From positions 70,097-134,096 of the forward strand of contig QZIM01000002.1 of the NCBI GenBank assembly GCA_003599055.1: a stretch of 64,000 nt of DNA, written 5' to 3'. A program made the translations under genes and the position numbers. This document shows, in pieces, positions 21,544 to 40,379 of the stretch (position 1 is the stretch's first letter; every line of letters begins with the position of its first letter). The notes beneath the pieces were generated by a model, which did no database searches, was not told where the DNA came from, and worked only from the letters and a program-made list of their open reading frames with translations. This DNA is from Candidatus Woesearchaeota archaeon. GTDB taxonomy: Archaea > Nanobdellota > Nanobdellia > Woesearchaeales > ARS49.

Positions 21544-24500
21544 TTGGCTCGCTTGTGCGCGCAGGTTTGTTATTGCTTCGTCAATTTCCCTGATTCTGTT
21601 TGTGATTACTATCGAAACGTGTGAAAAGACTGATCTTAGTTGTTGTTCCGTTTGCGCATCGCGTAATTGTTGGGCGACATCAGCGGTGTTTCCTGCGAAC
21701 GGTCGACTTTGTGATATGACAAGGCCTATTGTTGTTCTGAAGTTTGGTTCGGTCTGTCCGCTTGCAACAGGAGTAGTGCTGATTTCATCCAGTTGATTAA
21801 TGTGTGTGGTAAAAGTAGCCCCAACGCTGTTTATCTGCTGAATTGCTTCTGTTCGTGCAGGGTCTGCGGCGTACGCGAGTATGTTGGGGTAGGAGGGGTC
21901 TCGCCGTTGTTCGAAGTATGTTTTTTGGGCAGTAAGTTGTTGTTTGTAGTTGTCAAGTATGGTGATTGCTCTTTGTATTTTCTCAAGGCGAGATATGGTT
22001 TGAATTGATGGAGGAGGGGTGGGAGGTCTGCCGGCAGCGGCAAGTTCAAGAGATGCTTTTGCATGAGTGAGGTCTTCCATCACGAAATTCGTTGCGATGT
22101 TGTAAGATCCGACTGATTCTCGGATAATATCAATCGTTCCTGCTGTTGAGAACTCATTCTTTCGTTGGGGAAGGTTGCCTGGGTTCAACCAAACAGTAAT
22201 GGTGTCGCGTATTATGCGTGTACGTCTTGTGCTCTCGGCAACACTCGGCGCGGTCTGGTTTAATGCTTCAAGTCGGGATATGTGCTGTTCGATTACGGAC
22301 TTTTGGCGTTGGAGGACAGAAATGTATTCATCCATCTGGGTGATGGTTGTTGAGAGCAAGGGTGGACGGGTATATGCGAGAAGTTCGGTGTCACTTTTGC
22401 TCATAATCTCACTAAATCTTGCTCTGTGTATTTGTTGTTCTGCATTGAATTGGTCAATAGTGCTGATTACTCCGCTCAGTGTCTGAAGGGAGGTCGTTTG
22501 TGGTATCTGCGGCGCACTTGTCACCGGTGCTCTCTGTGCAGGACCAAGGATGCTGGTGATGAATTGTTGTGTTTTTGCTTGGAGGTCGGTTGCGAATGCT
22601 GCGGCATCAGGTGGTGCAGGGGTTATTTCGGTTCCGTTGTTTGCGCGCAAGATGACCCCGAATAGCTGGTTATTACGGTAGATGATGACTGCGTTGCGGT
22701 TAAACTCAAGGAGGGCGACGCGGTATTCGTTGTTTTCAGGGGTGCTTGCATAGATTCCTCTGCCGGCGTCGTACCTGAATTCAGTAATTTGTCCGGTGAA
22801 GTCGCGCAGGGTGATGGTGTTTGTTTGTCCGTTGTATTGCCACGCATTTGTTCCGTAAATTTGGTACACTTGTCCTGCCCGTTGTACTTGTCCTCCGAGT
22901 TGTTCGATTTGCCGTGCAGTATCAATCGTGTTGATGAGGGTTACTAATTCGCCGGTCTTTTCGCTGACTTCATCTGCGGTCGGCGCTTCGCTAAGTCCCG
23001 CTATTTGTGTGCGGATGGTGGTAAGTCTTGTTTTTGCCGTGTTTAATCGCGTTTTGTAATTGGTGAGTGTGGTGTTTGTTGTAAGCGCATTTGTCTTGTC
23101 ATTCGCATTCTGAATGTTTGGAATTGCGGTGCTGAATGCAGTGTGTGCTGTTTCAAACGGTTGTGTTTGTAATTGGTATGTTTCAAGCAGGTCATCAACA
23201 GTGCGTAGGAGCCGCAGTCGTATTTGCCTGCGTGCCGCGTCGTCTGCGGTGTCTGCGCGTGCGGCAGTGCCAAGTTCAGTGAAGGTCGTGCGCGCCTCTG
23301 CTTCTTTGCTGGCGATTGGCTGCAGGGTGTCAATGATGCGGCGAATCAGTTCGGCAACATTAGATGTTTGTGATGATTGGACTTGGCTTTGGATGCGGGG
23401 GTCTTGTTTGGTTGTGCAAATCGCGTTAAACGTGATGCTTTTGGTTACGGGTTCGTCAGTAATGGGGTCTATGCTGGTTTGTTCGGTTCTGATGCCGAAG
23501 CGGTCGGAATCTTTTGCGGTGTATGTGATGGTGAACGGTTGCGGCTGTAATTGTGCGGTTGGGTTCTCGCACGGGTTAAGGTCAGGGGTGAGTCCCCAGG
23601 AGATGAGGTATTGGCGTGTTTCTCCGGGTGCAAGGCCGATGGGTGCTTGGGGGAATTCAAGGACGATGCGGGGGATACCGACGCGTTGGTCTGTGGTTCC
23701 GGATATGGTTCCTGCGCCTGCGTACGTTATTTGTCTTTGCATAATTCCTTCGCTTGCGCCGGGGAGTTTTTGCCGTTTGCCGTTAAAGCCGTTTTCACCA
23801 ACGCCGCGCTCAGGGCTTGCATCGTAGAGTACGTAGGTTTCCCTGCGGTCGCTGTCTGCTTTGACTTCGATGATGAAGTTGAATGGTTCAGTGTGTTGTG
23901 TTCCGTCAGGTTTGAGAATGTTAACAAGGGCGATTGCGGACGCGGCGGGTTGTGCGGTTTGCGGGTTGTTCACTGAACTCCACTGGTTGATTTCTCGGTT
24001 TTGTGTTCTTCCGCTGCCGAACCAGTTTTGTGCAACGATTGGCCGCGCGCCGAAGTCTTCAAAGGACATGGTGTAATCGCCGTTTTTGAGGGTGCGAACT
24101 TCGTCTGATGAGCGCGCAACTTCCCTTCCTTGGCTGTTTTTGATGCTGTAGGAGAGGTATTTTGCTTCGGAGGGTTCTGTTTCGCTGAAGATGGTTTGGC
24201 GGACGCGTAACGTGGCAGCGACTGGTTCGTTGAGGGTGAAAACGGGTGTTGGGATATTCACGGTTGGCTGGACGGTTGCGTCAAGGAATTGGATGTTTCC
24301 TGTTTCGTCGCCAAGGACGCAGCGGAACGCAAGCGATAAGGGGTCAAAACGGCACATTGAGGGCGCGCTGCCGGGGCCGTCTGTGCTGATGGTGCACTCG
24401 TCGGTTTTTGACGTGCGGGTTTGCTTGCCGTCGTTCCACGACCAGCGAAGGTATGCCTTGTCGTAGCGGATTTGCCTATCACCGGGGGTTCCGTCCATTG

Positions 24501-27500
24501 TGATGAAGAGTTCTTTGTTTTCGATTTGCCCGTTTGCAACGTTTGTTGACAGTCCTTCCGGGTTCACCACGAGTTCTTTTGGCGTGTCGCAGTCGCATTT
24601 GCCGCGGGCAAACCCGTCGCTTTCGCGGCACTTAAAGCCGCCGCTGCATTTGAGGACGAGTTCGACGTTTTCAAGGGCTGCGCCTGCGGCGATTCCTGCG
24701 CCGAATTGGTATTGCCAGGTGACCAGGCCTGATGGTCGTGTTGCGGGGTTAAAGCCGATGAACCTGCGCGAGCAGGGGAAGAGAAGGCCGTAGCTTTCGG
24801 TGGGTACTTCTTGGATTGCAGCATCGAATGCTGCGTCAAGGTCAAGGTTCCACGTGCCGGTGAATGCGAAAAGGCAGATGGAGTGGACGAGTTTTTTCTC
24901 AACGAAGACTTGTTTGTACATACTGGTTTCGCCGTAGCGTGATTGGACTGAGCGTGAGAGTTCCGCGCCGGTTGAGGTAAGGGCGCCCATAACGTTGCCA
25001 ACGCCGCTGTATTCGAGGCGTTTGCCGCTTGGTGAGCTGAATTTTTGGGTAAAGCACGCGATTGCGTCATAGAGTAAGTCGCAGGCGTGTTGTGATACGA
25101 CTGCTTGGCAAACGCCTGATGAGCCGTCGCCCGTAAGGAGGATGGTGTTCATACAGTCTCTCACTGCGCCTAAGATGTTGCGCCAGCGTTGGAGGAATGC
25201 GATGAGTGTGGGGATGCAAATGCAGCGAAGGGAGTTGACAAGGCCGTCGCCCGGGCGGATGATGTATTCTTGGTCGGGTGTTCCGATGATTGCCATTGCC
25301 TGGTCGTAGATGTCTTGCCCGACGACCGGGCAGGTTTGGTCTGTGCCGTATCCTGCGGCGACGCAAAGGGCGTTGCGGAATCCCTGCATATCGGTGATGG
25401 TCTGTTTTTGGTAGTATTCCTCGATTTTTTCCTGGGTGAAGTAGGGTTGGATGCTGGTGCTGTCAACTTCGATTGCGTTAAGGTTTGCGTTGATGCGGTG
25501 CTGGTTGCTTGCAGGGGTGGTTCCTGCTTGGGGTGAGCGGTCGAATTCGATGGTTTCGGCGACGTAGCCCAAACGGATGTTGTATTCGCCGGTGGTCGCG
25601 GTTCCTCCTTGCGCGCTTTGCGGAATGAGGAGGAGGTAGAGTTGCTGTTCTTTTGGTGCTGCAAGGCCTGCAAGGACGCCGGTGGCTCCGCTGCCGGTAT
25701 CGCAGCACGCTTTGGCAACAGGGATGGTGTGCGGGGTTTCTTTGCCGTCGTTGTCGCAGAACCCGCCGACGGAGTTAAGGATGTTGCCGCATTCAACGCT
25801 GCCTTTGTTGGGGCCAAGGCTGATGCCTCCGGGCACGTTTGCTTTCTCTGCAGACAAACACGTGCTTTCTTCGATTTCGTTGAACGTGTCAAGTCCGAAT
25901 GCGGAAACGCCGCACGCAGAGCTCCATTCTTTCATATAGGCAAACCCGCAGCATTCAGGTGCGGCGGGGTGGAGGTCGTCGCAGTTGACTTTGCCTGAGG
26001 ATTGTGCGGAGCTTTCAAAGGGGTATGGTGCGCTGTCTGTTTGGTGGTCGCGCCATTTGAGGTAGATGTCTCGTACTTGGTTGTAGGTGAAGAAGAGTCT
26101 TGGCGGCTGTCGCAGGCGTGTTTGCTGCTGTTGTGCTGCTTGTGTTTGTCCTGCTTTTTTGATGAGTGCTGCGCAGTCAGAGCCTATCATCACTGACTCT
26201 CCTTCCTTGTAATACGTATCGCCGGTGTATTTTGCTTTTGCCGCATCGCTTGTGAGCGTGACCGGCGTGAGTCTTTGCGGTGCGTGTTGTCTCAGATAGT
26301 ATTGCAGTGATGGCGCGGAGGGGCACATGACGCGGTCGCATACCTGTCGATAGGTTTGGTCAACGAATGCGCGCCTGCGTTTTGCATCGGAACATTCATT
26401 GCAGTTTCCTTTTGCTTCGTCTTGGTCTGTTCCGCTGTATTCTTCGTTGCACGCGCCGATTGCGGCAACGTTCGGGTCGAATTTGCCTTCATCGTCAAGC
26501 GATGAGAGTACGGAATCAAACTCGCACTGGTATTTTTCGATAAAGATGGGGATGAGCGAGACTCCTTGTCCTGCAAGGCAGGTGTAGAACAAATACTTCC
26601 CGATGGTTTGGATGGGCTTAAGGACAGTGTCGATTCCTTCGATGATGCTGGTGAGAAGTTCAGAGGTGGTTTGAAGCAGTCCTTTTGGGATGTAGCGGGG
26701 AGGTATTGGGATGTCGATAGGCAGTTCAATGGAAACACACGTTCGTTGGAACTGTGTTGTTGTCTGTTCTGTTTCCTGTGTGCGGCGAACGAGCGGGTCG
26801 GTGCTGAGCGGTCCGACGGTTTCTTGGAACGGTATTTCAAGTTCGAAGAAGAGTTTCATGCAGCCAAAGCCGGGGACAAGGCAGTCTTTGAGGCGGTGTT
26901 TTGCGATTACTTCGCGCTTGGCGAACGTGGTGGCGTTGCTTGGCTCTTTTTCTTCCGCAAGTTCGGGCAGTTGTTGCCAGGGGTTGTCAATTGGCCTGAA
27001 GGTGAATTGCAGATAGCCGGTTCCTTCAGGGGTGCTTCCCCGTCCTGTTGACCGGACGCCGAGCGGGCGTTGGTTGTATGCGACAAGAGTATTATCATAA
27101 TCCTTTCGCGCTTCAGGGCCAAGTTCAAGCGGCAGTATTTTGATTTGGTTGCGGTTGATGGTCGCGCTTTGCCCGCCTTGGTATTTGTAGGTGAACGAGA
27201 GTCCGACTTGTTGGGCGCCTTGAATGAGTAATTGCGGGTTGAGGATTTCAGGGGTTGGCTTGCTGAGTTCGACCGCGATTTTTGTGCCGCTGCCGCAGAG
27301 CTGGTAGTCTATTTCTTCTTCCGAAGTTTGCGTGGTGAATCCGACGGCGTCGCTTGCGTCAAGGCGGATTTTGTTGCCCCAAACGATTTGTCCGACTGCG
27401 CGGGTTGCGTTCTTTTGGAGGGAGGTGCTGCGTTCAAGTTTGATGGGAATGCTGAACGTTCCGTCGTCTGCGGTAAGGACGGTCTTTTGCGGTTTTCCGT

Positions 27501-28797
27501 TCACGATTGCGGTGACGCTTCCTTTTTCGCTGAGTTTGCCGCGGGCAACAACGTCTGATTGGTAGGTGGGGCCGAGGTTGCGCAGGTTGGTTTCAACAAA
27601 GCGCGGCGCGCCCGTGTCGTGAATGACGCGAGATTCGACGAGCGTGACGTATCCTGCCTTGTCAACTGCCTTTACTTCGACAAGGTTTTCGCCTTGTTGG
27701 AGGGGTACGGGGACGCTGCTGCGCCCGGTCGTGAGGGTGAGGTGTTGCGGTTCTTGGCCGCAGCTGAGGCGCGCGGAAGTGACGTTGTCATTGCGCGCAG
27801 TGCCTGCAGGTATGGTGGCGGTTTCAACGTCGCTGCGGTCTCCTTCAATGCAGCCCAAGCTGACCGCGCTGACTTGGTATTGGTATGACTTTCCGGGGCT
27901 GATTGAAGTGTCAACGTACTCGTTTTTGCCGGGGACTGCGATGCGAACGCCGTCGCGATAGACGGCGTATTCAAGGATGCCGGTTATCTCGTTCCACGTG
28001 AGCGTGACTTGGCCGGTTTCGATTTTGGTTGCCTGCAGGTTGCCCGGGCGAAGAGGGGGTTCTCCTTGGGGTCGTGACGTGATGGTGATGTTGACGGGTT
28101 CGCTGACCGTGATGTTTGCAATGACGGGTTGTTGTGTTGCGGTTGGCGGGATGCTGACGTTCATGCTTGCGGGAGCAGTATCAACTTCGATTACTTGCGT
28201 TTGTGTTGCGGTTTCGTTGCCAAGGGTTGCGATGAGCGTGACGTTTTGCGGCTGCGCGCGCAGTTCTATTTCGCGAAAGAGGAAGTCTCCGCGGTCGCTC
28301 ACGGTTCTGCGCAGTTCATTGCCGTTAAGGAGCAGTTGGACGGTGGCGCCGGGCCGTGTTTTGCCGCTAACTTCAAGCCGTGGTGTTTTGCTGTAGCGAG
28401 GGAGGTTCGCGCTAACGAAGAGTTTTCCTGCGTAGAACTGTTGGGTTGGGCTGTTTTTGCAGTTTCCTGATTCATCGCAGGACGTGATGCGGTAATAATA
28501 CGGTGTTCCCTGTACGGTGGGGATGGTGATGTTGTGCGCGGTGACAAGGGCGTTGTCTGTTGTGGTGTTGTCAAGCGCGAGTGTTCGCCCAAAGGCAACT
28601 CCTCCGGTTGCGGGAATGTTGGTGGTCCACGTGATGGTGGTGCTCTCTTGGTTGAAGGTAAGGGTGATGTCGCGCAGCTCAGGGGGTGTTGCAGTGCTTG
28701 TTGTTGTCGCATTGCTTGCGTTTACGTCTTGTGCGAAGGCAAAGGGGAAACTACAGAGGAGCCAAATGAGTGCGATTGTGAGGGGTTGTTTTCTCAT
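21538..28797 (-). CDS. giant secreted surface protein (2419 aa) with fibronectin type III and beta-rich repeats
   Basis: Signal peptide MRKQPLTIALIWLLCSFPFAFAQ and an uninterrupted 7.3-kb ORF. An FN3-like segment is present (LQATKIETGQVTLTWNEITGILEYAVYRDGVRIA...YQYQVSAVSLG). The C-terminal 600 aa are Q/T/A-rich and helical. Confidence 0.8.
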   Translation of the reverse strand: MRKQPLTIALIWLLCSFPFAFAQDVNASNATTTSTATPPELRDITLTFNQESTTITWTTNIPATGGVAFGRTLALDNTTTDNALVTAHNITIPTVQGTPYYYRITSCDESGNCKNSPTQQFYAGKLFVSANLPRYSKTPRLEVSGKTRPGATVQLLLNGNELRRTVSDRGDFLFREIELRAQPQNVTLIATLGNETATQTQVIEVDTAPASMNVSIPPTATQQPVIANITVSEPVNITITSRPQGEPPLRPGNLQATKIETGQVTLTWNEITGILEYAVYRDGVRIAVPGKNEYVDTSISPGKSYQYQVSAVSLGCIEGDRSDVETATIPAGTARNDNVTSARLSCGQEPQHLTLTTGRSSVPVPLQQGENLVEVKAVDKAGYVTLVESRVIHDTGAPRFVETNLRNLGPTYQSDVVARGKLSEKGSVTAIVNGKPQKTVLTADDGTFSIPIKLERSTSLQKNATRAVGQIVWGNKIRLDASDAVGFTTQTSEEEIDYQLCGSGTKIAVELSKPTPEILNPQLLIQGAQQVGLSFTYKYQGGQSATINRNQIKILPLELGPEARKDYDNTLVAYNQRPLGVRSTGRGSTPEGTGYLQFTFRPIDNPWQQLPELAEEKEPSNATTFAKREVIAKHRLKDCLVPGFGCMKLFFELEIPFQETVGPLSTDPLVRRTQETEQTTTQFQRTCVSIELPIDIPIPPRYIPKGLLQTTSELLTSIIEGIDTVLKPIQTIGKYLFYTCLAGQGVSLIPIFIEKYQCEFDSVLSSLDDEGKFDPNVAAIGACNEEYSGTDQDEAKGNCNECSDAKRRRAFVDQTYRQVCDRVMCPSAPSLQYYLRQHAPQRLTPVTLTSDAAKAKYTGDTYYKEGESVMIGSDCAALIKKAGQTQAAQQQQTRLRQPPRLFFTYNQVRDIYLKWRDHQTDSAPYPFESSAQSSGKVNCDDLHPAAPECCGFAYMKEWSSACGVSAFGLDTFNEIEESTCLSAEKANVPGGISLGPNKGSVECGNILNSVGGFCDNDGKETPHTIPVAKACCDTGSGATGVLAGLAAPKEQQLYLLLIPQSAQGGTATTGEYNIRLGYVAETIEFDRSPQAGTTPASNQHRINANLNAIEVDSTSIQPYFTQEKIEEYYQKQTITDMQGFRNALCVAAGYGTDQTCPVVGQDIYDQAMAIIGTPDQEYIIRPGDGLVNSLRCICIPTLIAFLQRWRNILGAVRDCMNTILLTGDGSSGVCQAVVSQHACDLLYDAIACFTQKFSSPSGKRLEYSGVGNVMGALTSTGAELSRSVQSRYGETSMYKQVFVEKKLVHSICLFAFTGTWNLDLDAAFDAAIQEVPTESYGLLFPCSRRFIGFNPATRPSGLVTWQYQFGAGIAAGAALENVELVLKCSGGFKCRESDGFARGKCDCDTPKELVVNPEGLSTNVANGQIENKELFITMDGTPGDRQIRYDKAYLRWSWNDGKQTRTSKTDECTISTDGPGSAPSMCRFDPLSLAFRCVLGDETGNIQFLDATVQPTVNIPTPVFTLNEPVAATLRVRQTIFSETEPSEAKYLSYSIKNSQGREVARSSDEVRTLKNGDYTMSFEDFGARPIVAQNWFGSGRTQNREINQWSSVNNPQTAQPAASAIALVNILKPDGTQHTEPFNFIIEVKADSDRRETYVLYDASPERGVGENGFNGKRQKLPGASEGIMQRQITYAGAGTISGTTDQRVGIPRIVLEFPQAPIGLAPGETRQYLISWGLTPDLNPCENPTAQLQPQPFTITYTAKDSDRFGIRTEQTSIDPITDEPVTKSITFNAICTTKQDPRIQSQVQSSQTSNVAELIRRIIDTLQPIASKEAEARTTFTELGTAARADTADDAARRQIRLRLLRTVDDLLETYQLQTQPFETAHTAFSTAIPNIQNANDKTNALTTNTTLTNYKTRLNTAKTRLTTIRTQIAGLSEAPTADEVSEKTGELVTLINTIDTARQIEQLGGQVQRAGQVYQIYGTNAWQYNGQTNTITLRDFTGQITEFRYDAGRGIYASTPENNEYRVALLEFNRNAVIIYRNNQLFGVILRANNGTEITPAPPDAAAFATDLQAKTQQFITSILGPAQRAPVTSAPQIPQTTSLQTLSGVISTIDQFNAEQQIHRARFSEIMSKSDTELLAYTRPPLLSTTITQMDEYISVLQRQKSVIEQHISRLEALNQTAPSVAESTRRTRIIRDTITVWLNPGNLPQRKNEFSTAGTIDIIRESVGSYNIATNFVMEDLTHAKASLELAAAGRPPTPPPSIQTISRLEKIQRAITILDNYKQQLTAQKTYFEQRRDPSYPNILAYAADPARTEAIQQINSVGATFTTHINQLDEISTTPVASGQTEPNFRTTIGLVISQSRPFAGNTADVAQQLRDAQTEQQLRSVFSHVSIVITNRIREIDEAITNLRAQASQP

Positions 28798-30878
28798 ATG
28801 AATGTGGGCCTCAGTGCGGTTGCGTAGGGTGTTCCTTCATATTGTCCGCGTTCGTGGAGGAACAGGAAGAGTCCTGCCTGCTGGTGGGGTTTTTCGGGGA
28901 GCGGCCGGTATTCCATAACGTGAAAGACGATGTTGTCTGCGGTTGCCAAGTCTTCGTATTTGAGCGTGATGTTTTCCGCGTGGTAGCCGCCGACGGGAGT
29001 GTCGCCTTTGAAGAGGAGGATGTCAAGGTCGTATTGCGCGTCGTCGTGGACGAGCCAAAGTTCGTTGCGTGCAATGCCTTCTGCTTCGGAAACAAGCCCG
29101 CTTTCTTCTGAGCTGAACTGGGTGAGGTTTGCGGGGTAGAGGAGGTATTGGTCGAATTCCTTGCCGCGAAGGGAAAGCGAGACGGTTGCGTGCATGGTTT
29201 TGGGAAGTCTTGTGTATATTTGTGAGTCGAGCCAGCGTTGTGCGCGGGCGTTCATGGGGTCGGTTGTGCTGACTTCTTCGTAGTAGGGGTGCACTTGGAT
29301 GGAATAGTTGAGTTTTTTGAGCTTGGTGAGGGAGAGGTCAACGCGGTTCTCGGTTGCCTGCTGTTCGGATGAGAGGTATCCTTCTTTTTGCCCGATGATG
29401 AGGGGGGCGTTGCATCCTTCGGGCAGGTAGCTAAAGAGGCGAATGGCGCCTGACCCGTCGCTGTACGTTTGGCCAAGGAGGCATTCTTGGTTAAGGCAGC
29501 GGTAGGTGACATTGACTCCGTCAAGTTCTTCTGCGATGGGGCTTCCTTCAACGAATCCGCGTGCGCGAACGTCAATCGTGCGGTCTCCGAAGCTTGTGCA
29601 GAATTCGGTTGTGAGCGGCGGCGCGCGGAACTCGCGCAGTCCAAAGAATATGCGGCTCGGTTCGTTGTCTTTGATGATAACGGGGAATGCGTAGTTGAAC
29701 ACGTATCCTTCGCCGTTGAATGCGTCATCGTCGCGAATGGAGACTTTGATGGGGTAGATGAGGTCATAGGTGAAATGCCATTGGTTGAGGCAGACAAAGC
29801 GCAGGTATTTGCGCGGGCCTTTCATATTTTCTGTGGAGAGGATGCCGCCGCGTGCGGGGTCTGCGTTAAGGAAGAGTTGGCCGTTGAGGGGATAGGTGAA
29901 TGCTGCTTTAAGGGTGGTGTCGCGAACGCCGGCATCAAGGGTCATGCGGTTGATTTCGTAGACGTCATCAGGGACATTGCGCGGCCAGTTGGGCGTTGCT
30001 CCCGCTTCGAGTTGTGCGCGAATCGTTTCCGCTTGGTCTTTGAGCCGTTCATAGGTGCGCTCGCTTGCGATGGGTTCGGTGTTTTGCGTGTTTGCAACGC
30101 GAACCGTGGGCAGGTTATACGCAAGGAGGTTGCGCAGTTCGTTTCGGACTTCGGGAAGGTACCATTTTTTGGTTCCGCAACTGAACTCCATTCCGCTCAA
30201 GGGTATGCGGCTGTTTGCGCTCATAAGGTCAAGGGTGAGATTTTCAAACCATTCCTGCTCGTTTTCTGCTTTCATAATTGCAGAGGCAAGTTCGTGGATG
30301 GGCTTGAGGCGCACGGTGTGGCTGGTGACAAAGTCAGTCATTTGTGTCCTGCGTTCGGTTGTTTGAATGTCAAGGGGCCAGTTGACGTTGACAATGACGC
30401 GGTCATCGGTGATGCTGATGACGGGGAGGATATTTCCGGTTGGGGTGACTTCAAAGACAGGGGCAAACGCGCGAAACTCATCAACGCATTCAGCGAGGTT
30501 GTTTTTGATGTGATGTTGAAGTTCGCGCGTGATGGTTTCAAGCGATGGCGTGCGGTCTTCTCCTTCAAAGTACCAGTACGGGGTTTTGAGGGTGCCGAAT
30601 TCGTCAAGCGCGACATAGCTTGAGGGGGTTCGCGCGATGATTTGGGGAATTTCAATGTATCCGCTTTGTTGCCCTAAGATTTCAAGGCCTTCGCGGGTAA
30701 GGTCGCGCGTGCACGTGACGACGGCATCGTAGATTTGCTGCACGTCTTCGGGGACGGTGATTGCGCGCTCAAGCGGTGCGCGCGCTTCGCGGGAGGTAAA
30801 ATAGATGACAAGTCCGATAGAGAGGAGAATGATAAGTCCTAATATGATAAATATGGTGAGCTGTGCTCGATTATTCAT
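28794..30878 (-). CDS. large type-IV-pilin-like protein (class III signal peptide), 694 aa
   Basis: The N-terminus MNNRAQLTIFIILGLIILLSIGLVIYFTSRE is a basic residue plus Gln followed by a single hydrophobic helix. It is a paralog of 31504..32409 and 43594..45735, sharing the post-TM block V..C.....G...G.QGGY. ATGA overlap with the giant gene downstream. Confidence 0.65.
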   Translation of the reverse strand: MNNRAQLTIFIILGLIILLSIGLVIYFTSREARAPLERAITVPEDVQQIYDAVVTCTRDLTREGLEILGQQSGYIEIPQIIARTPSSYVALDEFGTLKTPYWYFEGEDRTPSLETITRELQHHIKNNLAECVDEFRAFAPVFEVTPTGNILPVISITDDRVIVNVNWPLDIQTTERRTQMTDFVTSHTVRLKPIHELASAIMKAENEQEWFENLTLDLMSANSRIPLSGMEFSCGTKKWYLPEVRNELRNLLAYNLPTVRVANTQNTEPIASERTYERLKDQAETIRAQLEAGATPNWPRNVPDDVYEINRMTLDAGVRDTTLKAAFTYPLNGQLFLNADPARGGILSTENMKGPRKYLRFVCLNQWHFTYDLIYPIKVSIRDDDAFNGEGYVFNYAFPVIIKDNEPSRIFFGLREFRAPPLTTEFCTSFGDRTIDVRARGFVEGSPIAEELDGVNVTYRCLNQECLLGQTYSDGSGAIRLFSYLPEGCNAPLIIGQKEGYLSSEQQATENRVDLSLTKLKKLNYSIQVHPYYEEVSTTDPMNARAQRWLDSQIYTRLPKTMHATVSLSLRGKEFDQYLLYPANLTQFSSEESGLVSEAEGIARNELWLVHDDAQYDLDILLFKGDTPVGGYHAENITLKYEDLATADNIVFHVMEYRPLPEKPHQQAGLFLFLHERGQYEGTPYATALRPTFI

Positions 30879-30976
30879 TGTACCCCTTTTTTTAACCCTG
30901 TTTGACCGATTGGTCTTGTTGTATTTAAAGGTTTATATTTGAGAACGGGCTGCAGAAATGGAAAAAATCGTTGTGT

Positions 30977-31366
30977 TTAGCGGCACACGCACTGCCAGCG
31001 GTTCGGGCCAAAGGGGTCGCAGGGCTTAAGCGCAAGGGTTTTTCCGCAGTAGGGGATTTTTTGTGATGCTGCCTTGTACGCATCGATGCACTGGCCGGGC
31101 TGTCCGTTCACCATAAGTTGGTCAACGTTAAAGCCGCAGGCACTCCATTTTCGGCACTGGCCGCTGCATTGTGTTTGCGTCCATTGTTGCGGTGTTGCAG
31201 GAGTGTAGGTGCGCGGAACTGTTACCGTGCGGGTTGGGACTTGGGTTCGTTGTTGGACAATCAGTTCTCCACTTGTCGCGGACGGGCTTTCGGTGTAAAC
31301 AAGGCCGAACGCGGCGGTGAGGGCGACGATGGCAATAAGCGCGATGAGTGGAGTCTTTTCGTTCAT
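30977..31366 (-). CDS. small signal-anchored Cys-rich protein
   Basis: TM anchor (MNEKTPLIALIAIVALTAAFGLVY) and a C-terminal domain with 8 Cys. Confidence 0.45.
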   Translation of the reverse strand: MNEKTPLIALIAIVALTAAFGLVYTESPSATSGELIVQQRTQVPTRTVTVPRTYTPATPQQWTQTQCSGQCRKWSACGFNVDQLMVNGQPGQCIDAYKAASQKIPYCGKTLALKPCDPFGPNRWQCVCR

Positions 31367-31472
31367 TTTTCCTCTTTTTTCGTTCACAGAATCACTGATT
31401 ATTTTTAATTGTTGCGGGTTTTTCGCGTTTCCAAGTTGTCGTACATTTTTCTCTTTGGTCGTACAATTATCT

Positions 31473-31480
31473 TTATAAAC
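31473..31480 (+). promoter_or_regulatory. TATA-like box about 27 nt upstream of ATG (probable leaderless transcript)
   Basis: The tttataaa box is centred about 28 nt upstream of the 31504 ATG and lies in an AT-rich spacer. Confidence 0.35.
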
Positions 31481-31503
31481 AAAAACAACTGCGTCACGCA
31501 CAG

Positions 31504-32409
31504 ATGAAAAGAGGTCAGGTTACTGTTTTTATCATATTGGGTATTTTGCTTCTTGCAGGGGTTGGTTTCTATCTTTACTTGTCCGGTCGTGAGGCAGAGG
31601 TTCCGCTTGAGGCGGGCGTGATGAAGCCGACAACAGACCCGCGGGTTTTTCAGGAGTTTGTTGAGGCGTGTCTTGCGGAGACCGTGACGCAGGGAGTTTA
31701 TACGATTGCGGCGCAAGGCGGCTATTCTGCGCCAAAGGGTGATTGGTCGCTTGGCGATTCCGGAGACGGTCTTCCGATTCACTATTATGTGCCTGAGGGG
31801 GTCGTGCCGTTTGTTTTGAACAGGAACGATTCGGCAGTGCGTCCTCTTGCTGATGTTGAGCTGGTTCTTGCGCGGTATGTTGCGGCGAATTTTGATGAGT
31901 GTTTGGACTTTTCTGATTTGGAAGCAAGAGGGTACGAGGTAAAAAAGCCAACTGTTGACTTTGAGGCGATAAACTGGGATTTTGCAAGGGCAAAAGTTGA
32001 GTTTGCGCAGGAGACCGTGCGAATAGATGCAGAGCTTCGGCCTGAGGGCGATATTTTTGTTCGCGCAAGATACCCGATTGCGGTAAGCGGCCTTGATGCG
32101 TCGTTTACGATTCCGGAAACTGCAGTGGTTGTGCCGCTTCGGCTGGCGTTGCTCCATAAGATTGCCGTGCGTCTTGCTGACCAGATAGGGAAGGCGGCAA
32201 GGCAGGGAAGTGCCTATAAGGTTGATGAGCATTGTCAGGAATATGCTCCGGCGGATATGCAGGTAAATGTGTATGCGTTCAAGAGCGGCGCCGTGCGTGA
32301 GGCGCTCATCACCGTAGTTGACGCAAGCCCGCGTCGTCTTGGCTTAGCCCCGCTTCGGTTCAATATTGCCGTGCGAAATGCGGATGCAGAAGGAGTGTGT
32401 CTTGGATGA
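31504..32409 (+). CDS. type-IV-pilin-like protein (class III signal peptide), 301 aa
   Basis: MKRGQVTVFIILGILLLAGVGFYLYLSGRE is a classic KRGQ prepilin-like start. Its conserved block (EFVEACLAETVTQGVYTIAAQGGY) is shared with the 694- and 713-aa paralogs. The 13-nt overlap with the downstream giant gene indicates co-transcription. Confidence 0.7.
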   Translation: MKRGQVTVFIILGILLLAGVGFYLYLSGREAEVPLEAGVMKPTTDPRVFQEFVEACLAETVTQGVYTIAAQGGYSAPKGDWSLGDSGDGLPIHYYVPEGVVPFVLNRNDSAVRPLADVELVLARYVAANFDECLDFSDLEARGYEVKKPTVDFEAINWDFARAKVEFAQETVRIDAELRPEGDIFVRARYPIAVSGLDASFTIPETAVVVPLRLALLHKIAVRLADQIGKAARQGSAYKVDEHCQEYAPADMQVNVYAFKSGAVREALITVVDASPRRLGLAPLRFNIAVRNADAEGVCLG

Positions 32410-35400
32410 AATCATTTGCGTTGTTTGCAATTATGTTGTTCTTGCTCTATCCGGTGGATGTTTCTGCGCAGCTTGACGGTGCGGACGGGGGTGAGGGTTT
32501 TGACTCATTTATTCCGGTGTTGGGAAATGTAACGGTGTCCATTGATGTCGCTTCTGTTGTCATTCCCGCATCTTTTAGTGGCGAGGATGTTTCTGCGCAA
32601 GTGAGTGTGCGGTTGGATGGGCCAAACCGGCAGGTAGGGGTTTTGGGAATCAAGATGACGCTCAAGAATTACACGGGCGGCGAGGCAGTTCTGTCAGGTG
32701 ACCAGTCGTTGACTGTTTCGCTGCAGCCGGATGCAGTGTCGAATGCGGTTGTTCTTGAAAATCTGAACTGGCGCATCTTTAGCTATTATGGGCAGTTGCA
32801 GCAGGGGCAAACCGGCTTTGGTCGCGAATTATTTTTTGATGTTCTGAAGGGCGGGAAGAATTATGGCCGTTTGGCGCTGAGTTTTGAATTGATTGACCCG
32901 CTTGCGGATGAGAGCGAGGTGACGATTTCAAAGGACGGCAGTAAGGTTGGTTCGGGTACGGTGTTTTCTGATGATGAGCCGCTTATCGACCAGTTCACGC
33001 AGGTGACGAATTTGTTTGCGGGTTTTGTGACGACGAGAAACGGCAATCCGGTGCAGACAGGGGAGATTCGGGCAGCAGTGGGAGGAGGGGTAATTGGCGG
33101 AGGGGCATTTGTTTCGGAAATCTCTGCGGTTGGCGAGCGCGGGGGGTATGGGTTCCACGGGCGCCCGATGGTTGTTTCAGGAGTGGTCGGCACTCCGGTT
33201 GATTTTTATTTTGGGGATTACAAATTGGAGACGGCGTATTTGACAAGTGAGGGGCAGGTGCGCAGGCTTGATTTCCAGCTTCCTATTGTGACGAGCGCAG
33301 TGAACTTCCCTGATTGGGATTTGGATGGGGTTCCTGATACGGAAGATGTCTGTCCGAGTTCTGATTCAAATTTGGTTGATGCGAACGGTTGCACCTGCGC
33401 GCAGCTGGTGGCGCTCAAGGGCGGAAGTTGCGTATATGTTCCCGGAAAAGGGCCGAAGTGGAGTCCTCCTGCGCCTCCGCCTCCGCAGTGTAAGACGCCA
33501 AATAAGTGCATAAGCGGCCAAGGCCCGAAGTTTTGCACGGAGAACTCAACAATTATCAATAATTGCGAAGAGTGCGGCTGTACGCCCGGGTTCACGTGTA
33601 ATCCCTGCCCTGAAGGGATGGAGTGCATTACGGATGGGAATTGTTACAAGGTAATTGAGCGGGTTGGGCTTAAGTGTTTGACAAATAAGTACGTGAACGG
33701 GCCCGGGCTGAATTGCTCGACATTGGGCAACACGTGGGTTGACGTTTTTGCAGAAGACCCGCTGAAGCGTGACTTGAGCAATTTCATTACGGTTGAGGTG
33801 GAGACGGGAACATTTGGGGGGAAGCGCAGGGATATTCGCCAGCAGATGGTGAACAATTTGAAGATGCAGAAGGTGTGCATTGATTCGGTTGACATTGGTT
33901 GTGTTCCGGAAGGGACAAAGTGTGCGGGTGAAGTGCTTTTGCAGCGGGACTTTGGTGAAGTGACCTCGGTACTTTCACAGTTCGTTCGGACAAAGACAAC
34001 GCGTGACCTTGCGGGAGCGCTTGCTTCGCCGCTGAATATCGGATTGTCGACAGGAGGCGCGCTTGCGGGTGCGCTGATTGGCGCGTCAATGGCAGGGCCG
34101 CTTCTTGCCGCAGGGCCGCTTGCCATTATCGGCTTGCTTGTCGGCGCAGTGATTGGCTTGCTTGGCGCGTTCTTTGCAAAGGTGCGCATTAAGTTTGGCC
34201 TGAACGTCCAGGCAATCAAGGATAGTTCTACAAAGGTGGCGTACGTTTGTGACCCTCTGTTGGTTCTTGGCAATATGACGTGTTCGCCGTTGATGCAAAA
34301 CACGGATTCTGATGGCGGAATTGATATTTTGTTTATGGCTGATGGGTATTCTGATGATGAGTTCCAAGCACTTGTTGAACAGCTTATCGACCGCAATAGT
34401 ACTGCGTCGGGTACGCGCAGGGAAGGTTTGTTCTCAAGAGAGCCGTTCCGCGGAAACAAGGGGCTGTTTAACGTGTGGATTATGACGGCAAACCAGTCGA
34501 TTGGCCACGTTGCGGATGAGTTCAGGCCATCGCTGGGAAGGCGTCCGAACATTACGGATGTTCGTCAGATTGCGGCGTACTGTCCGCAGCAGGACTTCAC
34601 GTTTGTTGTGACAAAGGGTGAGCGGTATTTCAGTGATTGCAGCTTTGAGGGAACGCAGCCGTGTTATTTGAGTATGGAAGATGAGGGTGTGCCGGGGCGG
34701 CAGGTGCTCCGTATGATGGGGAAGGCCTTGGGCGGTCTTGCAGATGAGTGGACTTTTGAGCGGGATGCGGTTCCAAGCAAGTATCGCGTGATGGGTCTTG
34801 AGTTTGTCGCAAGCGACAATCGTCCGAACTGTCAGACTGATGTGAATGAGGCGCGTGCGAAGTGGGGTGATAAGATTGCGGAGGCAGGGGTCGGCATTTT
34901 TGATGGGTGCGGCGGTGAATGTACGAATTGTGCGCGGTTCCAGCGCCCAACGTATAACAGCGCGATGCGGAATTGGACGCAACGGTGCACATCTGAAGGC
35001 AACTGTCGTGACGGCCCGCCGTACGACCCGTTCTATATTGTGAATGAGGAGGCGCTCATTGATGCAATGCAAAAATGGGGTGATGCAGAGGCAAGTGAGG
35101 AGGCGCCAAGCGCGCCGGTGTCGATGGAAGATGAGCAGGGTGGTAAAGAGGAGGTTTCAGAGGGGGAAGGGACGACCGAGTCTGATGTGAGTCAGGTTGA
35201 CATTAGCGTGTTTTCATTCAATCCGGGTTCAATTACGATTGCACGCGGAGAAAAAGTCCGATGGACAAACAAGGACGCAACCGAACACACGGTGACGGGA
35301 ACCGGGTTTGATTCGCGCCTCGCGCCGCAGCAGAGTTTTACAAGGACGTTTGACACTGCGGGGACGTTCACATACCAGTGCAGTATTCACCCGGAAATGC

Positions 35401-35423
35401 AGGGTGTTGTGATTGTCGAGTAG
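32397..35423 (+). CDS. giant mosaic surface protein (1008 aa): TSP3-like repeat, Cys-rich module, internal Gly-zipper TM, degenerate M64-peptidase-like domain, C-terminal cupredoxin
   Basis: Signal peptide MSWMKSFALFAIMLFLLYPVDVSAQ. DWDLDGVPDTEDVCP is a thrombospondin-3-type Ca-binding repeat. A Gly-zipper TM helix lies mid-protein (GALAGALIGASMAGPLLAAGPLAIIGLLVGAVIGLL). IDILFMADGYSDDEF...GGLADEW resembles the IgA-peptidase M64 fold but has no HExxH. The C-terminal cupredoxin carries H...CSIHPEMQG. Confidence 0.75.
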   Translation: MSWMKSFALFAIMLFLLYPVDVSAQLDGADGGEGFDSFIPVLGNVTVSIDVASVVIPASFSGEDVSAQVSVRLDGPNRQVGVLGIKMTLKNYTGGEAVLSGDQSLTVSLQPDAVSNAVVLENLNWRIFSYYGQLQQGQTGFGRELFFDVLKGGKNYGRLALSFELIDPLADESEVTISKDGSKVGSGTVFSDDEPLIDQFTQVTNLFAGFVTTRNGNPVQTGEIRAAVGGGVIGGGAFVSEISAVGERGGYGFHGRPMVVSGVVGTPVDFYFGDYKLETAYLTSEGQVRRLDFQLPIVTSAVNFPDWDLDGVPDTEDVCPSSDSNLVDANGCTCAQLVALKGGSCVYVPGKGPKWSPPAPPPPQCKTPNKCISGQGPKFCTENSTIINNCEECGCTPGFTCNPCPEGMECITDGNCYKVIERVGLKCLTNKYVNGPGLNCSTLGNTWVDVFAEDPLKRDLSNFITVEVETGTFGGKRRDIRQQMVNNLKMQKVCIDSVDIGCVPEGTKCAGEVLLQRDFGEVTSVLSQFVRTKTTRDLAGALASPLNIGLSTGGALAGALIGASMAGPLLAAGPLAIIGLLVGAVIGLLGAFFAKVRIKFGLNVQAIKDSSTKVAYVCDPLLVLGNMTCSPLMQNTDSDGGIDILFMADGYSDDEFQALVEQLIDRNSTASGTRREGLFSREPFRGNKGLFNVWIMTANQSIGHVADEFRPSLGRRPNITDVRQIAAYCPQQDFTFVVTKGERYFSDCSFEGTQPCYLSMEDEGVPGRQVLRMMGKALGGLADEWTFERDAVPSKYRVMGLEFVASDNRPNCQTDVNEARAKWGDKIAEAGVGIFDGCGGECTNCARFQRPTYNSAMRNWTQRCTSEGNCRDGPPYDPFYIVNEEALIDAMQKWGDAEASEEAPSAPVSMEDEQGGKEEVSEGEGTTESDVSQVDISVFSFNPGSITIARGEKVRWTNKDATEHTVTGTGFDSRLAPQQSFTRTFDTAGTFTYQCSIHPEMQGVVIVE

Positions 35424-37667: not shown

Positions 37668-40379
37668 TTATCCTGTTTGGTTTTGTGGTATGACGAGTGT
37701 TGTTGGCCCGCCGGTGTAGTCTGAGAATGGCACGCAGAGTTCTCGAACGGTCCCTGAATAGAACGCGTCTCCTGAGGGGAGTCCCGGATTAAACGTTAGG
37801 CAGGCAGTATCATATTCGTTGGTGCTTTGGTTGTAGAAGTGGTTGAAGTCCGTGTCTCCTGGGTCTAACAGTCTGTCTTGCGGGTACAGCCGTACGCTTG
37901 AAAGGGCGGGAAGCCCGTTGACGCGGGTGCGTACGGGCCGAACGTAGCGTCCGATTGCAGTGCTTTGGTTGAGGTCTTCGAGTGTTAACGGTCCAAGGGA
38001 TGTTCTGTTCATTTGCGCTTGGACGCTTGCTGCGGTTGCCGCCGCAAGCGCAAGTTGGGCGCTCGCGGAGGTTCTGCGTAGTTCAACGTTGAATCTCAGC
38101 TTGTCTGACTCTAAATTGTTCGTAATGCTGTACTGCACGTGGTACAATCGGAGCGTGAGCGGTCCGAGTATTGTAGGGTCGAATGTCGGGTCGGTTAAGT
38201 CTACTCTTCGTCCGCCGACAACGCTTTGGTTTCCGAGGATGTCAATGAGTTGTTGTGCGCTGAGTCCTGCAAGAAGGATTGGTTCTGACCGTTCTGCGTT
38301 GATAACTGCGCTGTTTTTGTATTCTGCTCTGCCGGTCCTGCCGATAAGCACGTTGTCTGCTTCAAATTTGTGGATTTGTCCGCAAATGGCAGAGACAAGG
38401 CAGTTGTCTATGCCGGCAAACCCGCAGAAGCTTTGCGCAAGCCGCGCCCTGTTTTCTTCAATGAAGTCTCCGATGAATAGTGAACTGAGTTGTGCAAACC
38501 CGCTGAACTGGTCGTAGTTTCGGAAGAAGTCCCCAACGAGCCGGTCCCAGCTTGCAAGGTCGTAGTATCCTCCCCAGCTCGCACGGCGGGTGTTCAGTTG
38601 GGTTGCGTCTGCTTGTTCTTTCAAGAGCGCGGCTTCCTCTTCGCTGATTCCCTGTCGCCGAAGGTATGCTTCTGCTTCAGCATCGCCGCCTACGATTACT
38701 TTCTCTCCATCCTCATTCACTCTAAAATAATCTCCGGCCTCATCAACACCCAAAACTATTTCTCCATTTCTCCTAATCTCCGTCGTTCTTGCCAGTTCGG
38801 TATACGTTGCGGGTTTGTTTTCAAGCGCTTTGATTTCGTCTTCTTTTTCTTTGATTGCTTCTCGGTCGGGAGGTCTTGCATTTCTGAGTCGGGTTAATTC
38901 TCCTTGTTCTCGTTCAACGACTTCATTGCGGGTGACGTGGTCGACGCTGATTTCTCCGATTGCGCGGGATTGGCCGGAGGGCAATTGCCTGCCTTGTGAA
39001 TCAGTGTCCGTGAAAATCGTGGTGCTTTCCCGCCGTGGGATTTGAACCGTGACTGCATTTGTACCTGTGCCTATTCTGCGCTCTTCATTGTAGGTGGTTC
39101 TTTCCTGATAAATGGTTTCTCCGCCGGGTCCTCCTTCTTCTATAACTGTGCGCTCCCTTCGTGCATAGACGTAGCCTGCATCGGACAAGATATCATCTGG
39201 AACCACGGGATAATCTATTGTTTTTTTAACGGTGTCGGTGAAGAAAAATCCTTTCTGCTGTCTTGTAAATTCTATACGGTAATGTTCATCGCCAACTTTA
39301 GAAAATCTTGCACCGTCAGGATCTGCTGCGAGGGCTGTTGCAAGGTCGTTCATAAATGAACGGGGCAGAGCATCTCCGATAAGGTCGCCTTTTTCAACAG
39401 ATTCGGAGGTTCCGTGGAAGTCAGTTATCTCTAAATCAGCAGTCTTATCAATGTGCAGGTTTCCCTCGTCGTCCACCCACGCAGTGAGGTCTTTTAGTTC
39501 TGTATCTCTTAGCAGAGTCTGTTCTGCTTCAGTGAGTGTGCGGCCAGGGGTACGTGCTTCTGTTGAAGAGGCAGCGCCTGATCCAGAATCTGCTTCAGGT
39601 CGGCCGGTCGCCACTTCGGATGGTGTTGCGGCGGGTTCAATTTCACCTCGAAGTGCTGTGCGTATATCTTCCTGATTGGCACTGCTATCTTGGCGTCTCT
39701 GTCCTCCAACATCTCTCCACGCGGTGATTATTCGGTTATTGCTGTCTATTCTGTACTCAGTAACGGTCCCGTCATCTTCAATATACAAGACGTTTCGATT
39801 TCCACTTGAGTCAGGAGGAGTCATAAAGACTTGTTTGTCTGCAAAAGACGATTGCTGATAGGTCGAGCCTTGATAGGTGACTCTGTCGTTTTGCGCAGTC
39901 GCTCCAGGTATTCGCTCACGGTATGTTCCGGCAATATCTCGTGAAGGAGGAGAGGGGTTTACGTTTGCAGGTATGTTTGTTGTTCCTATGCTGCTGATTC
40001 CTCCTGGGCTGAGCGTGTATGGTACTGTCACTGCTATGGACGGTCCAATTCTGCTTACTTTTTGAACAATATTAATTCCTTCTGGTGGGATTTGCTGTCC
40101 AACAAAAACTCCATTTGGGTCATAAACTCTTCCGTTGGACGCTACCCGGTAATCGGTCGTTGTTCCGTATCGGATTTCGGGATTGGCTGAGGAGGATATA
40201 AATAAGATTCTGTTGCGCTCAGCGATGTGCGTATTTTGATTGTAATTGTCAATTGCCTCTCGAGAGTGTATCAGTTGGTCTCCCTCCAGTCGCAAATCTA
40301 TTTGTTGGCCTGATACTCCTAGAATACAAATGCACAGTGAAAGAATGATTGCGCTCGTGCGTGATGTTTTCAAGGTCAT
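37668..40379 (-). CDS. giant secreted protein (903 aa)
   Basis: Start placed at the internal ATG (MTLKTSRTSAIILSLCICILGVSGQQ, a signal peptide), which overlaps the stop of the upstream 1073-aa gene (ATGA). Beta-rich with no catalytic motifs. Confidence 0.65.
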   Translation of the reverse strand: MTLKTSRTSAIILSLCICILGVSGQQIDLRLEGDQLIHSREAIDNYNQNTHIAERNRILFISSSANPEIRYGTTTDYRVASNGRVYDPNGVFVGQQIPPEGINIVQKVSRIGPSIAVTVPYTLSPGGISSIGTTNIPANVNPSPPSRDIAGTYRERIPGATAQNDRVTYQGSTYQQSSFADKQVFMTPPDSSGNRNVLYIEDDGTVTEYRIDSNNRIITAWRDVGGQRRQDSSANQEDIRTALRGEIEPAATPSEVATGRPEADSGSGAASSTEARTPGRTLTEAEQTLLRDTELKDLTAWVDDEGNLHIDKTADLEITDFHGTSESVEKGDLIGDALPRSFMNDLATALAADPDGARFSKVGDEHYRIEFTRQQKGFFFTDTVKKTIDYPVVPDDILSDAGYVYARRERTVIEEGGPGGETIYQERTTYNEERRIGTGTNAVTVQIPRRESTTIFTDTDSQGRQLPSGQSRAIGEISVDHVTRNEVVEREQGELTRLRNARPPDREAIKEKEDEIKALENKPATYTELARTTEIRRNGEIVLGVDEAGDYFRVNEDGEKVIVGGDAEAEAYLRRQGISEEEAALLKEQADATQLNTRRASWGGYYDLASWDRLVGDFFRNYDQFSGFAQLSSLFIGDFIEENRARLAQSFCGFAGIDNCLVSAICGQIHKFEADNVLIGRTGRAEYKNSAVINAERSEPILLAGLSAQQLIDILGNQSVVGGRRVDLTDPTFDPTILGPLTLRLYHVQYSITNNLESDKLRFNVELRRTSASAQLALAAATAASVQAQMNRTSLGPLTLEDLNQSTAIGRYVRPVRTRVNGLPALSSVRLYPQDRLLDPGDTDFNHFYNQSTNEYDTACLTFNPGLPSGDAFYSGTVRELCVPFSDYTGGPTTLVIPQNQTG

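Follow-up and report, generated by a model that had tools for sequence, protein, structure and literature searches.

The archaeal pilins solved so far carry a beta-sandwich. Modular pilins are an established precedent (PMC8179133; PMC7541494). In the minor pilin-PilY1 tip complex of bacterial type IVa pili, a Sec-secreted adhesin that is not itself a pilin and has at least about 1,000 aa acts jointly with pilin-like proteins (PMC7541494). [quoted passage not shown] A sequence-only reading of the 64-kb stretch of DNA analysed here, from a DPANN archaeon of the Woesearchaeota and hereafter called the window, had described a novel paralogous family of unusually large pilin-like proteins. The emphasis on an atypical size was overstated, since both large class III-signal proteins and modular pilins were already known (10.64898/2026.04.22.720090; PMC8179133).

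Family members and their distribution

The homology of the proteins, the conservation of their leader, their predicted fold, the synteny and coupling of the genes, the features of the partners and the restriction to one lineage are computational findings. The window encodes three family members: A, a 694-aa protein representing the A-type paralogue (28794..30878, minus strand), C, a short C-type member of 301 aa (31504..32409, plus strand), and B, a 713-aa protein (43594..45735, minus strand) of the B-type, which is the most widespread subtype of the family. The open reading frames confirm the lengths given in the sequence-only reading, which had placed all three proteins at 28794-32409; A and C lie inside this region and B outside it.

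A and B share 26 % identity over about 500 aligned residues (BLASTP, E 1e-36), and C matches B with an E-value of 3e-13 (BLASTP). A profile comparison of the C-family with the A/B-family using hhalign gave a probability of 99.9 % and an E-value of 2e-31, with C residues 1-225 corresponding to B residues 3-230, and a module of about 225 aa in C is common to A and B. Judged from these alignments, A, B and C are true paralogues whose homology reaches well past the hydrophobic helix, so the proposed paralogy is not a matter of a generic helix. The earlier statement that the proteins diverge in length after their first part did not hold, since A and B stay homologous through two domains past the N-module.

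The family comprises 8,921 clusters at 50 % identity, 1,711 of them at E<=1e-30, and species-representative genomes contain no fewer than 454 loci. Record titles of its members mostly read Woesearchaeota, Nanoarchaeia or Nanoarchaeota; the family is restricted to one archaeal lineage, the Woesearchaeota/Nanoarchaeia, as the earlier reading had considered, and appears to be very widespread in it. The 75 close homologues of B are all labelled 'hypothetical', with no Pfam domain in any, and the cluster names of distant members are all 'hypothetical protein'. A, B and C had no match in Pfam or NCBIfam, and full-text literature searches did not bring up a description of the family. The family is therefore novel in the sense of being unannotated, but it is not unseen, as public databases already contain thousands of homologues labelled 'hypothetical protein'.

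N-terminal leader and post-TM block

The N-termini of the three proteins are near-identical (MNNRAQLTIFIILG, MKKGQITVFIIIG and MKRGQVTVFIILG). Their leaders read MKKG/QITVFIIIG..., MNNRA/QLTIFIILG... and MKRG/QVTVFIILG..., where the slash marks the putative cleavage site, and the previously noted motif Y-[LF]-x-[GS]-R-[ET] is present in all of them (3/3). The leader is short and positively charged, has G or A at -1 and is followed by Q and about 22 hydrophobic residues. In B, the leader and hydrophobic helix, MKKG/QITVFIIIGISLLFIIGAALYL, constitute a putative class III signal peptide (45655..45735, minus strand), based on conservation in homologues. Among 56 homologues, G4 (-1) is conserved in 51/56, Q5 (+1) in 55/56, T7 (+3) in 54/56, F9 (+5) in 52/56 and G13 (+9) in 55/56, with [KR] at -2. 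The leader and TM helix of B form its best-conserved segment, in which the commonest residue of each column has an average frequency of 0.67, compared to 0.39-0.58 elsewhere; in pilins, alpha1N is also the best-conserved part. The N-terminus of A, B and C fits a class III/prepilin-type leader with a putative cleavage at G/Q, and the nearly invariant G(-1) and Q(+1) agree with the pilin-type leader that had been proposed. The exact motif was found on no protein outside the family and could therefore reflect a family-specific helix packing instead of a shared processing signal.

In Pfam, the N-terminus matched PF13400, a TadE/G-like family, below the threshold (E 0.016-0.07). When the 50-aa N-termini were scanned against Pfam at E<=10, all matches stayed below the threshold and neither PF04021 nor PF07790 was among them. 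The complete A, B and C proteins likewise did not match PF04021, PF07790, PF07963 or the NCBIfam pilin/leader models.

A conserved block after the TM helix, which had been given as V-x-x-C-x(5)-G-x(3)-G-x-QGGY, does exist, but with a different spacing: the pattern is [VI]-x-x-C-x(7)-G-x(4)-[GA]-x(2)-[GS]-G-Y, and it ends in exactly QGGY in C only, in QSGY in A and in SGGY in B. The 14 conserved cysteines indicate an extracellular location. A fourth protein (62807..63175, minus strand), which the sequence-only reading had credited with the same leader at conventional pilin size, shares only K-R-G-Q and a hydrophobic stretch, without detectable homology. It was rejected as a member and belongs to a different, unrelated family of small Cys-rich proteins.

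Predicted fold

According to hydropathy, A, B and C have one TM segment each, located at the N-terminus. The layout predicted for B consists of the leader and TM helix (aa 1-27), a pilin-like alpha/beta module (about aa 47-245), a second alpha/beta module (about aa 250-410) and beta-sandwich domains (about aa 430-713). These three globular parts are present in the AlphaFold2 model of B (pLDDT 87.6), in which the pilin module, common to C, is fused to extra bulky domains and a long coiled coil is absent. The beta-sandwiches matched transthyretin-like, CnaB and carboxypeptidase-regulatory-like domains in a fold search. For C, the layout comprises the leader and TM helix (aa 1-29), a flexible linker (aa 30-45), the pilin-like module (about aa 46-233) and a small second module. 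The top PDB fold matches of the modelled N-module of C were type IV minor pilins and pseudopilins, which would fit the pilin-like character suggested for this protein.

Between the TM helix and the globular module, the models contain a linker of about 16 residues predicted with low confidence, whereas canonical pilins have a continuous alpha1 helix. Searches against PDB sequences returned no match for the A4 profile and, for the A2 profile, only the designed 'Anti-Parallel Protein 10', which was judged spurious. A substrate-binding or enzyme domain was not found in the family by Pfam, NCBIfam, PDB sequence or fold search.

Partner genes and genomic context

The A, B and C genes are each translationally coupled to one or two giant, Cys-rich Sec-secreted partners with Ig repeats, with ATGA overlaps at 4/4 junctions in the window. 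B is followed by pB (40376..43597, minus strand), a 1073-aa protein whose translation contains a Sec signal peptide and Ig-like repeats and is rich in cysteine in its C-terminal region (31 Cys), and whose start overlaps the B stop codon. The third gene of this module, p900 (37668..40379, minus strand), starts at 40379, overlapping the pB stop codon, and encodes a 903-aa protein with a Sec signal peptide and, by hydropathy, no TM segment; 17 of its homologues are located downstream of pB orthologues. B is preceded by up297 (45786..46679, minus strand), a 297-aa single-pass membrane protein with a weak Pfam match to the Ig-like Big_9, orthologues of which are directly upstream of B-type genes in other genomes. 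The partner of A, pA (21538..28797, minus strand), overlaps the A stop codon and has 2419 aa, a Sec signal peptide, Ig/fn3-like repeats based on weak Pfam matches, 45 Cys and no TM anchor according to hydropathy. C is coupled to pC (32406..35423, plus strand), which has about 1005 aa, a likely ATG start at 32406 overlapping the C stop codon and, by hydropathy, a Sec signal peptide and a central TM segment, as well as a region with weak similarity to M64 peptidases and, at the C-terminus, a cupredoxin domain (Pfam Cupredoxin_1/Copper-bind). At least two partners, pA and p900, have a signal peptide only and lack a membrane anchor by hydropathy.

This arrangement recurs in other genomes. In most of the 86 related loci, B-type genes are followed by a Sec-signal protein of about 1010-1180 aa, most of these with the 4-nt start/stop overlap. 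A-type orthologues are present in 37/86 loci, where most of them follow the B-type gene at a distance of about 5-8 kb downstream; the cluster order, B to A, is thus found repeatedly, pA orthologues follow A-type genes in other loci, and the C-pC pairing is found again in GCA_016203305.1. The sequence-only reading had missed both the translational coupling and the conservation of the modules across genomes. Among the giant partners, BLASTP revealed no significant homology and hhalign supported only the Ig-like 'DxxGN...D..PP' repeats shared by pA and pB (probability 94 %). A collinear Cys-rich match of pB 894-935 to pA 1179-1220 was insignificant, and pC had no detectable relationship to pA or pB.

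Pilus machinery was searched in the window and in flanks of up to 10 kb around the 86 related loci. A pilus ATPase, platform or peptidase gene was not detected by Pfam among the 38 larger ORFs of the window, nor were type IV filament ATPase or platform genes in the precomputed Pfam annotation of loci L001-L006. Machinery near a family gene was found in 1/86 loci only, L063, which contains a T2SSE ATPase and two T2SSF platform genes, with MetRS and other housekeeping genes intervening before the family gene. For this reason, genomic linkage was rejected as evidence for a pilus role. A small pilin with a [KR]-A-Q leader (MVMKKKAQAAMEF...) lies beside these T2SSE/T2SSF genes and is the only small pilin found at a Woesearchaeota pilus locus; together with the machinery, it indicates that Woesearchaeota have such a system and a comparable cleavage-site pattern. 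ABC transporter genes were not found near the family in the window and related loci examined.

Discussion

The explanation put forward here, given about an even chance of being correct, is that A, B and C are paralogues in a large family of modular surface proteins that resemble type IV pilins, are specific to Woesearchaeota and display their coupled giant partners. The family would be a further form of minor or tip pilin-like protein with a modular build, for which a pilin function is plausible. Its predicted architecture starts with a class III/prepilin-type signal and a flexible linker, followed by a disulfide-stabilised alpha/beta module with a pilin-like fold, to which the long forms would add a second alpha/beta module and transthyretin/CnaB-like beta-sandwich domains. 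Such a protein would be inserted into the membrane via its N-terminal helix and may then be trimmed at G/Q by a class III signal peptidase. The helix could then either keep it in the membrane or fix it to an Epd-like type IV filament, at the tip or at the base. The extracellular modules may capture the giant partner produced along with it and present this partner as an adhesin in contacts with other cells or a host. Phe instead of Glu at +5 and bulky domains suit a tip-capping subunit, as in GspK, TcpB/CofB and the modular pilins of Streptococcus sanguinis, and not a filament-body subunit.

The same proteins could also be uncleaved stalks, in which the N-terminal helix is a permanent type II signal anchor and tethers the giant partner as a surface coat or S-layer-like canopy, functionally similar to SlaB and without pilus machinery. 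This is a serious possibility, though on balance a doubtful one. The missing genomic link to pilus machinery, the flexible linker after the TM helix, the strict coupling to anchorless partners and an apparently very widespread occurrence in the lineage, as expected of an envelope component, all agree with it. The missing linkage does not disqualify a class III-signal reading, as the genes of binding proteins with class III signals also lie outside pilus loci. Moreover, a simple anchor leaves the near-invariant G(-1), Q(+1) and T(+3), the particularly well conserved TM helix and the pilin-enriched fold matches of the N-module unexplained, and three different modules per genome would be unusual for a single lattice. 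The architecture of SlaB, the S-layer stalk of Sulfolobales, also differs: it has a C-terminal TM anchor and a coiled coil but neither a pilin-like module nor a class III-like leader, whereas hydropathy places the TM segment of the family at the N-terminus only and the B model contains no long coiled coil.

Thousands of archaeal class III-signal binding proteins encoded away from pilus loci (10.64898/2026.04.22.720090) point to another, rather improbable explanation, namely that the family has an activity of its own, such as substrate binding or catalysis in a bindosome-like manner, and that the giant neighbours are only loosely related in function. Bindosome-type proteins resemble the family in their size of more than 300 aa, in a layout where the class III signal and TM helix precede a linker and then a functional domain, and in their location outside pilus loci (10.64898/2026.04.22.720090). 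However, the searches detected neither a substrate-binding or enzyme domain nor neighbouring ABC transporter genes, and the ATGA coupling to a giant partner recurs across most loci. Finally, a chance resemblance of generic hydrophobic N-termini without any real family has next to no probability. Only the low complexity of TM helices speaks for it, and the fourth protein does fit this description; for A, B and C it is refuted by the BLASTP E-value of 1e-36, the hhalign E-value of 2e-31 over 225 residues and the 1,711 clusters at E<=1e-30.

The modular pilin-like reading can be extended to a more specific, and unlikely, proposal. The B, A and C modules might form a Woesearchaeota-specific cell-contact apparatus of class III-processed, Glu5-less, GspK/CofB-like tip pilins on an Epd-like filament, each presenting its own giant Cys-rich secreted protein. 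They would then be the long-sought host-attachment device of this DPANN lineage, with an alpha/beta pilin fold of bacterial type in an archaeon.

DPANN archaea, Woesearchaeota among them, are believed to live in attachment to other cells, and few of the molecules behind this contact are known. An extracellular family with a pilin-type N-terminus, which appears to be very widespread in the lineage and is translationally coupled to giant secreted proteins in conserved modules, provides good, testable candidates for the structures by which these tiny archaea hold other cells. The family has thousands of members and no entry in Pfam or NCBIfam, so its definition would also benefit the annotation of a whole archaeal order.

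Compared with known systems, the family shows no sequence similarity to the bacterial modular minor pilins and pseudopilins (GspK; TcpB/CofB; S. sanguinis PilB/PilC). In contrast to these, it is archaeal, reaches 650-850 aa, has a linker after the TM helix, is located outside pilus loci and has giant partners (1,000-2,400 aa) in the same operon. It shares with the PilY1 complex the combination of a pilin-like protein and a large Sec-secreted protein, but no PilY1 similarity was detected in the partners, and here one pilin-like protein is paired with one or two giants in repeated, paralogous modules. With Epd-type pilins and class III signal proteins (Methanococcus EppA substrates; PF04021), it has in common a short basic leader, G or A at -1, Gln at +1, Ser or Thr at +3 and a hydrophobic helix, and a canonical Woesearchaeota pilin, KA/QAAMEF, adjoins the Epd/system-1-like locus in L063. 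The family differs from them in Phe instead of Glu at +5, in matching neither PF04021 nor PF07790 and in being 3 to 7 times larger. The globular fold predicted for it is similar to the alpha/beta fold of bacterial pilins and not to the beta-sandwich of the archaeal pilins solved to date. If the pilin-like fold is confirmed, the concept of the modular tip pilin would be extended from bacteria to archaea.

Results

The three pilin-like proteins A (28794..30878, minus strand), C (31504..32409, plus strand) and B (43594..45735, minus strand) are 694, 301 and 713 aa long, in agreement with the lengths given in the sequence-only reading. The range 28794-32409 in which that reading had placed the family contains A and C, but B lies outside it. 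The near-identical N-termini that had been noted (MNNRAQLTIFIILG, MKKGQITVFIIIG, MKRGQVTVFIILG) were recovered in all three proteins, as was the pattern Y-[LF]-x-[GS]-R-[ET] after the helix. The conserved post-helix block also exists, but its spacing had been misread, and the corrected pattern is [VI]-x-x-C-x(7)-G-x(4)-[GA]-x(2)-[GS]-G-Y. The likeness extends past the hydrophobic helix: the alignment of A with B spans ~500 residues at 26% identity (E 1e-36), C matches B at E 3e-13, and comparing the A/B family profile with one built from C and its orthologues gives a probability of 99.9% (E 2e-31), covering C residues 1-225 and B residues 3-230.

The window carries the archaeal housekeeping genes NOG1 and TruD, and the record 'hypothetical protein C4580_00630 [Candidatus Woesearchaeota archaeon]' has the same sequence as C. 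All 75 close homologues of B (~700-840 aa) are unnamed and lack a Pfam domain, and neither Pfam nor NCBIfam has a model for the family. When 1.84 billion representative proteins were searched with a family profile, 8,921 clusters matched at E<=1e-3, of which 1,711 reached E<=1e-30; among the best 150 of the 8,921, almost all matched full-length. At least 454 family loci were found in a scan with one genome per species. Among the 80 listed, most titles name Woesearchaeota, Nanoarchaeia or Nanoarchaeota, while ~25 read 'uncultured Methanosarcinales archaeon' with Woesearchaeota-type gene content and one (L022, DATILO010000078.1) reads 'Candidatus Binatia bacterium'. The latter two kinds of title are taken to be placeholders or mis-binned contigs, and since L022 carries the archaeal family, its contig is probably mis-binned. 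The homologue, cluster and locus counts and the locus titles thus indicate an old and abundant family; its restriction to a single archaeal lineage is supported by both the homologue search and the species-level scan. When the family members of 86 loci were scored against the three proteins, 91 proved to be B-type (median 718 aa) and 39 A-type (median 653 aa), and only close relatives of the source genome carry a C-type.

All four window junctions within these modules, A/pA, B/pB, pB/p900 and C/pC, are ATGA overlaps. Each partner has a Sec signal peptide. pA (21538..28797, minus strand; 2419 aa, 45 Cys) and p900 (37668..40379, minus strand; 903 aa) are without a TM anchor, pB (40376..43597, minus strand) has 1073 aa and 31 Cys, and in pC (32406-35423, plus strand; ~1005 aa) the TM segment is central and the C-terminus is formed by a cupredoxin/plastocyanin domain. 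The likeness supported between pA and pB is limited to shared Ig-like repeats (hhalign probability 94%). Across the 86 loci, a Sec-signal protein of ~1010-1180 aa follows the B-type gene in most cases, usually with a 4-nt overlap, and is often followed by a p900 orthologue; an A-type gene with a pA orthologue lies ~5-8 kb downstream. The divergent pair of A and C modules also occurs in GCA_016203305.1, with a B module on the same contig, and a 297-aa single-pass Ig-like protein is encoded upstream of B in the window and in other genomes.

Several further features were observed in the window. pC additionally has a thrombospondin-type-3-like motif and a weak IgA-peptidase-M64-like region, a domain combination unusual for a surface protein. 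The stretch separating the divergent A and C modules encodes, at 30977-31366 (minus strand), a small single-pass protein that contains 8 Cys and has 129 aa if read from the ATG at 31366; locus L005 has small genes of 76 and 97 aa at the corresponding site. Three paralogous predicted lipoprotein-like proteins (917-1267, minus; 11411-12340 and 12337-13980, plus) share the N-terminal pattern L-[LF]-x-[AS]-C-x-x-E-L-P-x-x-P-P-x-P-G, and the 917-1267 protein matches pC at E 2e-17. Toxin-antitoxin-like genes surround the modules (20721-21188 and 36503-37051, minus; 53906-54865, plus), comprising a PIN-domain protein, a zinc-ribbon/small-protein pair and a protein with MazE-like and PhoU-like domains; in L005, PIN, MazE and UPF0175 genes flank the orthologous cluster. 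GC skew is positive (0.02-0.29) in every 2-kb bin of the 64,000-nt window and AT skew negative in nearly all, despite genes on both strands, and the cumulative skew rises steadily without a turning point.

The leaders of 56 homologues have [KR] at -2, G at -1 (51/56), Q at +1 (55/56), [ILV] at +2 and +4, T at +3 (54/56), F at +5 (52/56) and G at +9 (55/56), with I I I between the latter two. The first 26 residues are the best-conserved segment (commonest-residue mean of 0.67 per column vs 0.39-0.58 elsewhere), and in 1.29 Mb of sampled DNA the exact motif GQ-x-T-x-F-I-I-x-G occurs only on this family. A, B and C each have a single TM segment, which is N-terminal, and 14 conserved Cys positions imply an extracellular, disulfide-bonded protein. 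In the confident AlphaFold2 models of B (pLDDT 87.6) and C (pLDDT 88.2, pTM 0.80), the TM helix is followed by a low-confidence linker (~residues 30-45) and an alpha/beta module opening with a long helix that bears the conserved Cys. In B, another alpha/beta module (~250-410) and beta-sandwich domains (~430-713) come next. Only these sandwiches gave PDB matches when full-length B was searched, namely to transthyretin-like, CnaB and carboxypeptidase-regulatory-like domains, Gram-positive pilin shafts and SlaB.

The fourth protein (62807..63175, minus strand), previously grouped with A, B and C by its leader, has only KRGQ and a hydrophobic run in common with them, and its homologues form a distinct family, whose small, Cys-rich members have class III-like leaders of their own. 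NCBI annotates it as 99 aa (C4580_00780), starting downstream of the hydrophobic helix. A GTG start at 63175 adds the KRGQ and TM leader, and the homologues P0226 (KKG/NAELLIF) and P0227 (KRG/HAEFVL) have comparable leaders; judged from these sequences, the deposited start is probably too short.

Discussion

The A/B/C proteins are best read as modular surface proteins of a pilin-like kind, anchored at the N-terminus, which may bind the giant partners co-translated with them and present these on the cell surface. The chief alternative is an uncleaved signal-anchor stalk, functionally SlaB-like, to which a surface coat would be tethered. A class III/pilin nature, with cleavage predicted between G(-1) and Q(+1), is favoured by the pattern of the leader and the extreme degree to which it is conserved, by a similar leader on a bona fide pilin of the lineage, by pilin-enriched fold matches of the modelled N-module of C, and by the co-occurrence of bulky domains with Phe at +5, a combination that recalls tip subunits such as GspK. 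However, the family has no match to a curated model, the TM helix is separated from the module by a linker, and genomic linkage to pilus machinery is missing, which argue against a pilin nature. Both readings share what the data establish, namely an extracellular, N-anchored protein with a giant secreted partner, organized in conserved paralogous modules.

As for that machinery, a Pfam scan of the 38 larger ORFs in the window gave no match to a pilus ATPase, platform protein or peptidase, and it was found in one of the 86 loci. This locus, L063, a contig of a Woesearchaeota-type MAG (CAYWLA010000006.1), has at 1-3710 a compact set of genes for an Epd/system-1-like type IV filament, encoding a T2SSE ATPase (487 aa), two T2SSF platform proteins (252 and 343 aa) and, as a small pilin, MVMKKKAQAAMEFLMTYGW. 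The lineage therefore possesses such a machine, along with pilins whose cleavage-site pattern is [KR]-[GA]-Q. The filament locus lies ~6 kb from a B-type gene on the opposite strand and does not support linkage to the family, since MetRS and other genes intervene.

Large proteins with class III signals were already known, and a 2026 preprint reports 4,364 binding proteins of archaea that carry them (10.64898/2026.04.22.720090). Other established precedents are modular pilins (PMC8179133) and the tip complexes of minor pilins with PilY1 (PMC7541494). Full-text literature searches turned up no description of the A/B/C family, and compared with these systems it is rated as an unannotated, lineage-specific and structurally distinctive family with a putative pilin-like function.
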